64,000 nt of DNA, taken from the NCBI GenBank assembly GCA_963705595.1, contig CAVPKD010000004.1:67111-131110 (forward strand), given 5' to 3'. Below are positions 30,458-43,310 of the stretch, one piece after another. Made by a program: the position numbers and the translations under genes. Position 1 is the stretch's first letter. Each line of letters opens with the position of its first letter. The notes beneath the pieces are model-generated. The model was given only the letters and a program-made list of their open reading frames with translations. It was not told where the DNA came from and did no database searches. This DNA is from Nitrospirota bacterium (GTDB lineage: Bacteria > Nitrospirota > UBA9217).

Positions 30458-33100
30458 ATGATCGGAACGATTCTCAAGAAAATATTCGGAACCAAAAATG
30501 ATCGGGAACTGAAACGCATTCAGTCGCTGGTGGACAAGATCAATGCGCCGAAGCTGTGATATCCGGTCTTACGGATGCAGCAATTACGGGCCAAGACATA
30601 CGAGTTCAAGAAGCGGCTCGAGGGAGGGGAGACGCTCGACGATATCCTTCCTGAGGCCTTTGCCGTGGTGCGGGAGACGTCGAAACGGACGCTCGGCATG
30701 CGGCACTTCGACGTGCAGCTCATCGGCGGCATCGTGCTTCATGAGGGCAAGATCGCCGAGATGAAGACCGGCGAAGGCAAGACCCTTGTTGCCACGCTGC
30801 CGGTGTATCTGAACAGCCTCACTGGCAAGGGCGTGCATGTGGTCACGGTGAACGACTATCTCGCCCGGCGCGACGCGCAGTGGATGGGCCCGATCTACAC
30901 CTTCCTCGGTCTCACCGTGGGTGTGATCGTCCACGGCCTCACGGACGAGCAGCGGCAGGAGGCGTACGGCGCGGACGTGACCTACGGCACGAACAATGAG
31001 TTCGGGTTCGATTACCTGCGCGACAACATGAAGTTCGATCTCGCGGACTACGTCCAGCGCGAGCTCAATTTCGCCATCGTGGACGAGGTGGATTCGATCC
31101 TGATCGACGAGGCCAGGACACCGCTCATCATCTCCGGTCCCACGGAAGAGTCCACGGACAAGTATTATAAGATCAACCGAATCATCCCGAGCCTGCAAGA
31201 AGGACACGGACTATACCATCGAGGAAAAGACCAAGACCGCGGCCCTCACCGAAGAAGGCAACATCAAGGTCGAGAAGCATGCTCGGCGCGGGCAACCTGT
31301 ACGATCCCTCGAACGTGGACCTCGTGCACCATGTGCACCAGGCCCTGAAGGCCCATGCCCTGTTCCACCGCGACGTGGACTACGTGGTCAAGGACGACCA
31401 GGTGATGATCGTGGACGAGTTCACGGGCAGGCTCATGCCGGGCAGGCGCTGGAGCGACGGCCTGCACCAGGCCATCGAGGCCAAGGAAGGCGTCAAGATC
31501 GAGAACGAGAACCAGACGCTGGCGTCCATCACCTTCCAGAACTATTTCCGGCTCTACAGCAAGCTCGCGGGCATGACCGGCACGGCCGAGACCGAGGCAG
31601 CGGAGTTCGCGAAGATCTACAACCTCGACGTGCGTCGTGATCCCGACACACCAGCCCATGATCCGCATCGACAACCCCGACTTCATCTACAAGACCGAGC
31701 AGGGGAAGTTCAATTCGGCCATCAAGGAGATCGAAGAACGGCACAAGAACGGCCAGCCCGTGCTCGTGGGCACCATCTCCATCGTCAAGTCCGAGATCCT
31801 TTCGTCGCATGCTCAAGAAAAAGGGCATCAAGCACACGGTGCTGAACGCCAAGTACCACGAGATGGAAGCCGAGATCGTTGCCCAGGCCGGTCGGTACGG
31901 CGCGGTCACGATCGCCACGAACATGGCGGGTCGCGGTACAGACATCGTCCTCGGGCGGCAACCCCGAGGGACTCACGCGCCAGGCGCTCAAGGGCAAGGA
32001 ATATACGAAGGAAGAGTGGGAGAAGACGCTCGCAGCAGTTCAAGGCGCAGTGCGCAGTGGAAAAGGAGAAGGTCATTGCCGCGGGCGGACTTCATATCCT
32101 CGGCACGGAACGGCACGAGGCGCGCCGGATCGACAACCAGCTCCGCGGACGTTCGGGTAGGCAGGGCGACCCTGGTTCGTCACGGTTCTACCTTTCGCTC
32201 GAGGACGACCTCCTCAGGATCTTCGGCTCCGACCGCATCGCCGGGTCTCATGGGCAAGCTCGGCATGGAAGAAGACGTGCCGATCGAGCACCGCATGGTG
32301 TCGCGCGCCATCGAGAACGCCCAGAAGAAGGTTGAGGACCACAACTTCGAGATGCGCAAACACGTCCTCGAATACGACGACGTTATGAACCAGCAGCGCA
32401 AGGTGATTTATGAGCAGCGCCGCCAGATCCTCGCGGGCATGGACCTCAAGGAAGAGGTGCTCGGCCTGGCCGAGGACATGCTCGACGGCGTAATCGCATT
32501 CTACTGCCCCGAGAACGCGTACCCCGAGACGCTGGGATGTCACCGGGCTCAAAGACACGCTCGCGGCTAAGTTCTCATACCGCATGGCCGGTATCGACCC
32601 GCAGTCCTTTTCTCGTGAAGAGTTCCGTGAGAAGCTCTGGCAAGCGCTCAAGCAGAGCTACGATGATAAGGAACAGCAGATCGGCTCCGAGCTCATGCGC
32701 CACCTCGAGAAGGTCTTCATGCTTCAGGCCGTGGACCACCAGTGGAAGGACCATCTCCTTGCCATGGACCACCTCAAGGAAGGCATCGGCCTGCGCGGCT
32801 ATGGACAGAAGGACCCTCTCATCGAATATAAAAAAGAAGGCTTCGAGATGTTCGAGGAGATGAAGCTTCGAATCGTCGAATCGACCGTTGAAAACCTCTT
32901 CAGGATCAAAGTTGCTGCAAAAGAACAGGGGCAGGAGATCGAGCGTCGGCAGAAGCGTCAGATTGCAAACCTCAGTTTTGTCGGCGCCGGCGCTACCGCA
33001 GCGGCCCCCGCGCCCGTGCACGTCGGCGCAGAAGGTCGGGCGTAATGACCCGTGTCCATGCGGAAGCGGGCTCAAATACAAGAAGTGCCACGGGAAATAA
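30458..33100 (+). pseudogene. secA: Preprotein translocase ATPase SecA. Readable end to end only across about 11 frame changes and one in-frame TGA. Probably sequence error rather than a dead gene.
   Basis: [21 protein letters not shown]..., [74 protein letters not shown] and a C-terminal zinc motif [15 protein letters not shown] are spread over ORFs 30575, 31279, 31637, 31809, 31879, 32584 and 32888. Confidence 0.9.
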
Positions 33101-33106
33101 TGCATG

Positions 33107-33190
33107 TTGTCGGTTCGCATAGAGCGTGAAAATTGTTGTACAATGCGTGAAATTTTTTCGCGTAGGGTGTGAAAACAACTTTTTTGGGCA
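33107..33190 (+). repeat. Junction repeat J1 (starts 7 nt after the secA stop)
   Basis: TTGTCGGTTCGCATAGA followed by three ~21-bp units: GCGTGAAAATTGTTGTACAAT, GCGTGAAATTTTTTCGCGTAG and GGTGTGAAAACAACTTTTTTG. Homologous to 40116-40200. Confidence 0.55.
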
Positions 33191-42796: not shown

Positions 42797-43083
42797 TGAT
42801 TTCCTGCTATCGAAAATCAGAGGAGAAGAAGTCAGTCATGAACACCATGTTTAGGATTAGCCGGGACTTCGAAGAAATAAAAAAAAGCTAACCTCAGCAG
42901 AATAACTTATTAACTTCATTCAGTGCATATTTCAACCCGGTAATCTGCAGAATATTCGTTGGATCGCCGATGCATAGTTGTAAGTCGCATTTTCTCAACT
43001 TTTAAAATCGTCCAGATTCCCCTGAGGTTAGTTAAATTCTGAACCATCCTCATGTCTGTTATAATATCTTTTCTTTCTTTCAT

Positions 43084-43310
43084 AAAAAACATTTTACATA
43101 TCTATCGGAAATCGTTATAATATTTCATCGGTTTAAATAAATTTCAATTTATCTGGGAATTTTTCAGGTTTATTTCACTTGATGTACAAATAAATTCAAC
43201 TATCATTGCGAAATAGATACACAACTCATTGATGATTAAAGAATAAAAATTTCATTTTCTGTGCTAACAGACAGCGTCTGTTGCGCGAATTTTATGGTTG
43301 AAATTTTCAT
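43084..43310 (+). repeat. Junction repeat J3
   Basis: Hand-aligned to 39921-40150. The 5' ~130 nt is well conserved and the remainder more diverged (GCTAACAGACAGCGTCTGTTGCGCGAATTTTATGGTTGAAATTTTC). Confidence 0.55.
43093..43121 (+). promoter_or_regulatory. Near-consensus sigma70 promoter inside J3
   Basis: TTTACA (43093-43098), 17 nt, TATAAT (43116-43121). Confidence 0.4.

Follow-up and report, generated by a model that had tools for sequence, protein, structure and literature searches.

A probable stack of three cargo-only Tn7-like units in the low-GC island behind secA of a Nitrospirota bacterium

The island and its repeats

The island described here lies between secA and a nitrilase-family gene in a Nitrospirota bacterium whose assembly comprises 3.6 Mb in 10 contigs and is 78% complete. 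The window, that is, the whole stretch of 64,000 nucleotides that was analysed, corresponds to positions 67111-131110 of contig 4, and all positions given below without another source are counted within it. The island occupies 33108-43551 and is 10.4 kb long. Its G+C content (GC) is 0.42-0.44 (33.1-43.6 kb), as opposed to 0.54-0.56 on either side. The cargo consists of a GT2 glycosyltransferase, a methyltransferase, two PMT_2-like membrane transferases and a TPR protein. There is no recombinase among the genes that the island encodes, in agreement with a preliminary description of this DNA, which had been made from its letters.

The preliminary description had recognised three noncoding junction sequences: J1, immediately behind secA, J2, in the interior, and J3, towards the nitrilase gene. 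It had considered them to be three direct copies of one sequence. All the strings that it quoted are present where it had placed them. However, local alignments scored against dinucleotide shuffles gave a different relationship. J2 and J3 are similar in direct orientation, as had been claimed, with 70% identity over 208 nt and a score of 78 against 12.9 ± 2.0 for the shuffles (z = 33). J1 and J2 are also similar in direct orientation, over 88 nt, with a score of 24 against 9.6 ± 1.4 (z = 10). J1 and J3 align in direct orientation at chance level (score 10 against 9.7), 255 of the 500 shuffles being equal or better. J3 aligns to the left part of J2 (39903-40110) and J1 to its right part (40111-40198), showing that J2 is made of two different sequences placed back to back. 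In both J2 and J3, the left end of one transposon adjoins the right end of another.

The units delimited by these ends have TGT...ACA inverted termini. The five tips conform to one 24-nt pattern, TGTCNGTTCGC-N8-TGAAA, or, written out, TGTC(G/C)GTTCGC-N8-TGAAA. With at most one mismatch allowed, this pattern has five matches in the window, compared with 0.03 expected from shuffles. The tips are situated at 33108 and 40117 on the forward strand and at 40110, 43551 and 43273 on the reverse strand, the last being the copy with one mismatch. When compared as reverse complements over 26 nt, the tips at 33108 and 40110 are 81% identical and those at 40117 and 43273 are 88% identical. At J2 and J3 a left tip, a spacer (CCATTT and GCGTC, respectively) and a right tip form a palindrome. 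Lone tips are found at both outer borders of the low-GC block, the extra lone left tip being at 43528-43551. The preliminary description had missed both this tip and the inverted relation of the tips to each other.

The first 11 nucleotides of the tip occur five times in the 3.6-Mb assembly, four times in the island and once outside the window, 42 kb away, where the rest of the pattern is absent and the match is chance-like. Searches of the entire assembly with BLAST and with patterns, a check that the preliminary description had proposed, found J1-J3 nowhere but in the island, so they are not a genome-wide dispersed element. Repetitive extragenic palindromes (REP) and miniature inverted-repeat transposable elements (MITEs) have many copies throughout a genome that are unrelated to the borders of islands, which is not the case for J1-J3.

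The tips divide the island into three tandem units, A (33108-40110), B (40117-43273) and C (43279-43551). The features of the region are listed below. The positions of the cores, (A/G)TGAAA, are counted from the T of TGT.

30458-33100, forward strand: secA; stop codon at 33098-33100; Pfam SecA_DEAD, SecA_PP_bind, P-loop_SecA, SecA_SW and SEC-C on six frame pieces
33102-33107, no strand: flank, first copy of the target duplication; GCATGT, which is GCATG plus one T, a possible indel error
33108-40110, forward strand: unit A; 7003 bp, GC 0.44; GT2 glycosyltransferase, methyltransferase, PMT_2-like transferase and TPR genes, without transposition genes
33108-33191, forward strand: right end of unit A, equal to J1; tip TGTCGG; three adjoining sites, each about 21 bp long, whose TGAAA cores are at +19/+40/+62
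39903-40110, reverse strand: left end of unit A, the left part of J2; tip ...GGACA, sites at +19/+75/+97/(+127) inward, outward promoter box at 39929-39957
40111-40116, no strand: spacer, second copy of the target duplication; CCATTT, between the left tip of unit A and the right tip of unit B
40117-43273, forward strand: unit B; 3157 bp, GC 0.42; fossil fragment of an N6-methylase and a PMT_2-like transferase (40856-42796)
40117-40200: right end of unit B, the right part of J2; cores at +19/+61
43066-43273: left end of unit B, the left part of J3; promoter box at 43093-43121
43274-43278, no strand: spacer, third copy of the target duplication; GCGTC
43279-43551, forward strand: unit C; degenerate right tip (TGTTGCGCG..TGAAAT), good left tip at 43526-43551, and a 168-nt MITE inside
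43342-43509, forward strand: the MITE, dispersed and unrelated; 168 nt, with a 9-bp duplication, ATAATTAAG, at 43333-43341 and 43510-43518
43552-43556, no strand: right flank, fourth copy of the target duplication; GCATC, a junction common to genomes G001 and G003
43719-44525, forward strand: nitrilase-family (CN_hydrolase) gene, the ancestral neighbour of secA

The two kinds of end are built differently. The cores of the right ends (+19/+40/+62) recur about every 21 bp in contiguous sites, and those of the left ends (+19/+75/+97/+127) are spaced. The 21-bp phasing of the cores in J1 and J2 had already been described correctly: J1 has cores at +19/+40/+62, and J2 retains those at +19/+61, its middle core being decayed. 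The spacers at the junctions have 5-6 nt and resemble GCATN: GCATG(T), CCATT(T), GCGTC and GCATC. The extra T at 33107 and at 40116 may be an indel error. It is absent from loci L100 and L138 (here and below, G and L numbers are the labels given to the compared genomes and loci, respectively), and the assembly has indel-rich patches. Metagenome relatives have ACATG or GCATT directly before TGTCGG at the secA junction, the latter in L138.

The domains of secA fall on no fewer than six reading-frame pieces, and the open reading frame can be read only through several frame changes. This looks like a patch of indel-rich sequence quality and not a dead gene. The 3' end of secA, with its SEC-C motif, is presumed to be that of the attachment-site gene.

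Empty, single and stacked secA sites

The preliminary description had suggested that an empty site be sought in relatives. Such a site is found in G004, G006 and G014, which represent three other genera of the same family and in which secA is followed directly, after 0.1-0.8 kb, by the nitrilase gene. In the spacer of the G014 site (L053), about 60-90 nt past the secA stop, TGCGAACG...TTCATGA resembles pieces of a left tip and could be either a very old relic or a chance match.

G002, which belongs to the same genus as the bacterium of the window, has a different island of 6.8 kb, which carries genes for GT2, methyltransferase and TPR proteins and whose right end begins 7 nt past the secA stop. 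The left end of this island is J3-like, promoter box included, and stands ahead of the nitrilase gene. In G001 a J2-type left end abuts a GCATC flank, as is the case after 43551 in the window. G003 has a unit C of about 105 nt that lacks the MITE; in this genome the contig with secA ends precisely at the junction.

GTDB (one genome per species) and then metagenomes were scanned for the tail of secA followed, after 12-16 nt, by TGT-N16-TGAAA-N16/17-TGAAA. GTDB gave 31 matches. Only four of these, each from Nitrospirota, are preceded by a genuine SEC-C motif. The metagenomes added ten secA-linked right ends, for a total of 14 loci, again all from Nitrospirota. In the window and in the 14 loci the right end is situated 5-9 nt past the secA stop and is always the end proximal to secA. 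The flanking 5-mers vary between hosts, following the sequence of each host. L067 is a complete secA-linked copy, 3.86 kb long, with a perfect 5-bp duplication (GCCGT/GCCGT). In L100 and L138 a right end of the unit B type is located directly at secA, as is to be expected if unit A arrived later than unit B.

Right ends of the TGTAAG type are present in L067, L116, G012 and L127 and are followed, just inside, by a GC hairpin and a run of T. This arrangement would terminate transcription leaving secA. The ends in the window have no clear equivalent of it.

Complete elements behind gyrB and the origin of the repeats

When the whole phylum was searched for the pattern, a right end of the same design emerged behind gyrB in G321. 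The G321 element is 23.8 kb long (L199 and L202, 4933-28781) and encodes TnsA (PF08722), TnsB (with the domains rve and Mu-transpos_C, PF09299), TniB/TnsC, TniQ and an HTH_17 protein. Its left-end cores are at +19/+73/+96/+127 and its target duplication is CATGC(T). A second complete gyrB element with the same right end, L214 (from 3494), was found through a relative of TnsB. In both, the positions of the sites match those of the secA-linked ends (+19/+40/+62 on the right and +19/+73-75/+96-97/+127 on the left), and the tip TGT(C/A)(G/A)G and the TGAAA core are shared with the secA units. The gyrB elements differ from the secA units in encoding the full machinery, in their target, in their distance from the stop codon (12-13 nt), in having no outward promoter at the left end and in the sequence of the sites, which is TTAACGCATAAAGTGAAA compared with TTCGCAYAGANNRTGAAA in the window. 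The right-end sites of G002, AACACATAA(G/A)GTGAAA, are nearly identical to those of G321, AAC(G/A)CATAAAGTGAAA, from which the sites of the window diverge more.

Complete Tn7-like transposons use the 3' end of gyrB as their attachment site; in them TniQ is joined to HTH_17 or precedes it. Between the right end and tnsA these elements have 6-8 kb of cargo, which in G321 includes a PRTase-CE / ORC-CDC6-like pair and methylases. Elements of Tn7-like or Tn5053-like type in G012, G014, G057, G066 and G008, which are of the same family as the bacterium of the window, were considered as helpers and rejected, having other site motifs and not being located beside secA. L167, on contig 11 of G012, is a different canonical Tn7-like element that has two TniQ/TnsD genes in addition to tnsA, tnsB and tnsC. 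In its right end, TGTTGATTCGCATAC..., the string TTCGCATA stands at the same offset as in the tips of the window, but the site motifs are others.

Inverted TGT...ACA ends, asymmetric arrays of several sites and duplications of about 5 bp are the signature of transposition by a DDE transposase of the Tn7 family. The island is interpreted, with a probability of about 0.85, as three Tn7-like transposons stacked behind secA, each non-autonomous and with cargo only. The lack of tnsA, tnsB, tnsC and tniQ, both in the assembly and in the secA-linked copies examined, makes the units non-autonomous derivatives and not full members of the Tn7 group. The preliminary description had proposed tandem accretion of modules right after secA. 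This remains valid, as do the borders at J1, J2 and J3, but the number of modules has to be changed from two to three.

Tn7 relatives are characterised by 5-bp duplications, close-packed TnsB sites at the right end, spaced sites at the left end and controlled orientation (PMC11406308). The secA units share with Tn7 (inserted at glmS) and Tn6022/AbaR (at comM), which are directed by TnsD/TniQ, the TGT...ACA tips, the packed right-end and spaced left-end sites and the duplication of about 5 bp. The fixed distance behind a conserved gene, the gene-proximal position of the right end and the building up of islands at the attachment site are also common to them. In contrast to Tn7 and Tn6022, the secA-linked copies examined are without tnsA, tnsB, tnsC and tniQ, and their left end has an outward promoter box. 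Cargo-only elements that keep both ends and are moved by proteins acting in trans are also represented by laboratory mini-Tn7 and by defective elements of the Tn402/Tn5053 type (class 1 integrons, which retain IRi and IRt and have lost tni). These are of a different lineage and have different targets, whereas the secA units are several natural copies stacked at one chromosomal site.

A number of observations weigh against the interpretation of the island as a stack of Tn7-like transposons. No homologue of tnsA, tnsB, tnsC or tniQ is present in the assembly (78% complete), nor are there transposition genes in any secA-linked copy examined. Pattern and TnsB searches across the phylum, together with five genomic contexts of the closest TnsB relatives, found no autonomous element that targets secA; they gave elements targeting gyrB only. 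A model of the sites made from G321 only places no more than two island sites in the top 20 of the genome. The connection between the window and G321 therefore depends on the tips, the core, the spacing and the homology of the ends to those of G002. The target duplications of the window are imperfect, agreeing in 3-4 of 5 bases, and two of the junctions have 6 nt. Unit C has a weak right tip; it is a probable relic mini-element, less certain because its two tips are only 55% alike. Finally, Tn7 shows target immunity to a second insertion (PMC11406308). Such immunity should hinder the stacking of elements with similar ends and would need to have lapsed here.

The preliminary description had regarded the borders as direct repeats of a gene 3' end, left behind by site-specific integration. 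In this case the repeats would be scars resembling attL, attR or attP of islands inserted by a tyrosine or serine recombinase, the spacers being the crossover core and TGAAA the arm-type sites. Tandem integration of this kind would also produce inverted cores round a short spacer, similar to the 11-6-11 geometry of J2, as well as asymmetric arm sites, and the transposase is absent from the island just as the integrase is. However, neither direct repeats of the 3' end of the target nor an adjacent integrase was found, there being no integrase in or beside any of the copies. The segment 40056-40098 of J2, thought earlier to be a decayed 3' end of secA, scores 6 against 6.5 ± 1.1, below the mean of the shuffles, so the tail of secA is not repeated at the border; the segment is homologous to the left ends in G001, G002 and J3. 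The ends are inverted and not direct, the outer borders have half sites only, and the flanking 5-mers are specific to each host, as fits target duplication and not a conserved core. Moreover, complete tnsABC-tniQ transposons without an integrase are bounded by ends of this architecture. Scars of recombinase islands are thus very unlikely. A Xer/dif-like 11-6-11 site or an integron attC was also considered and rejected. It would fit J2 only, since the outer borders are half sites, the J3 spacer has 5 nt and there is no GTTRRRY core.

A regulatory origin is slightly less probable again. The repeats would then be operators or iteron-like sites for a transcription factor, accompanied by duplicated promoters, or else genes for small RNAs ending in palindromic hairpins. 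The phasing of the cores at 21 bp, the palindromic character of the J2 and J3 sites and the presence there of the two strongest promoter boxes of the region would all agree with this. Nevertheless, the sites mark the exact borders of foreign low-GC DNA, are missing from the empty sites and are half sites at the outer borders. Junctions with a single end, such as those of G001 and G002, have no palindrome, and the perfect target duplication in L067 is also contrary to a regulatory function. Rfam has no match for the repeats, and no known RNA family was found for them.

The least probable origin is from the ends of an IS481-type element, with the IS481-like transposase inside two secA-linked copies as the cognate enzyme: elements of the IS481 family also start with TGT and an HTH+rve_3 gene is situated within the L067 and L116 elements, but this gene is part of a discrete 1.23-kb insertion sequence (IS) with its own borders, is found in G063 and G192 away from secA and without these ends, and is absent from the genome of the window. 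The IS, which encodes a 376-aa HTH+rve_3 protein, lies at 5878-7103 in L067 (flipped) and at 6929-8160 in L116 and is also present in L164. G063 has two tandem copies of it beside an integrase.

Proposed course of insertion, and the cargo

If the island is a stack of Tn7-like transposons, a DDE transposase of the TnsB type, supplied in trans, would bind the sites of about 21 bp. A selector of the TniQ/TnsD type would recognise the conserved coding end of secA with the SEC-C motif and steer insertion to a point 5-9 nt past the stop, so oriented that the right end is next to secA, about 5 bp of the target being duplicated. As the recognised sequence survives insertion, each later element would enter at this point too and come to separate secA from the older element. 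The order of arrival would be C, then B, then A, which would result in the left-tip/spacer/right-tip palindromes at J2 and J3 and in the lone outer tips. The copies would move, or would have moved at one time, by means of proteins supplied in trans. Given that the assembly has no tns homologue, the units are expected to be immobile at present unless a helper enters the cell.

The preliminary description was correct in assigning a promoter-like sequence, TTTACA-17-TATAAT, to J2 and J3. The boxes at 39929-39957 and 43093-43121 match in 11 of 12 positions and are the two best matches in 11 kb. This outward promoter box is present in the left ends of J2, J3, G001 and G002 and is absent from G321. 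There is about an even chance that, when only one element is present, the promoter reads into the nitrilase gene and drives anew a gene that was cut off from secA.

Cargo-only Tn7-like elements and the building up of islands at attachment sites are known already; the Tn7 literature that was searched does not name secA among the attachment sites. The full proposal combines a Nitrospirota lineage of Tn7-like elements that uses the 3' end of secA as its attachment site, cargo-only copies served in trans by a helper with a secA-specific TniQ/TnsD protein, and a left-end promoter that restores the cut-off gene. It is tentative, being judged a little more doubtful than probable.

The interpretation as stacked transposons would explain the borders and the modular construction of a glycosylation island without an integrase. 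It would also add secA, and gyrB in relatives, to the essential genes whose 3' ends are used by Tn7-type elements. A natural series is available, consisting of the empty site, the site with one element and the site with three stacked, and bears on the spread of Tn7 derivatives that lack a transposase, on the bypass of immunity and on compensation for a cut host operon. Should a selector specific to secA be found, the TniQ family would gain a further protein with a programmable site.

The cargo of unit B has a history of its own. The cargo gene at 40794-41310 has a counterpart in L106 (8601-9117) with 95% identity in DNA and 93% in protein. In L106 it is part of a single element with another type of right end, showing that cargo moves between end types. 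The fragment of an N6-adenine DNA methylase at 40574-40832 is HsdM-like (...PPGLFYGIGIPACALVCNKNKPN...) and has an internal stop.

The 168-nt MITE within unit C, which is not at the corresponding spot in G003, has imperfect terminal inverted repeats. Copies that are 96-97% identical to it are found on contigs 1, 6 and 9 of the assembly, and a diverged copy is located on contig 2.

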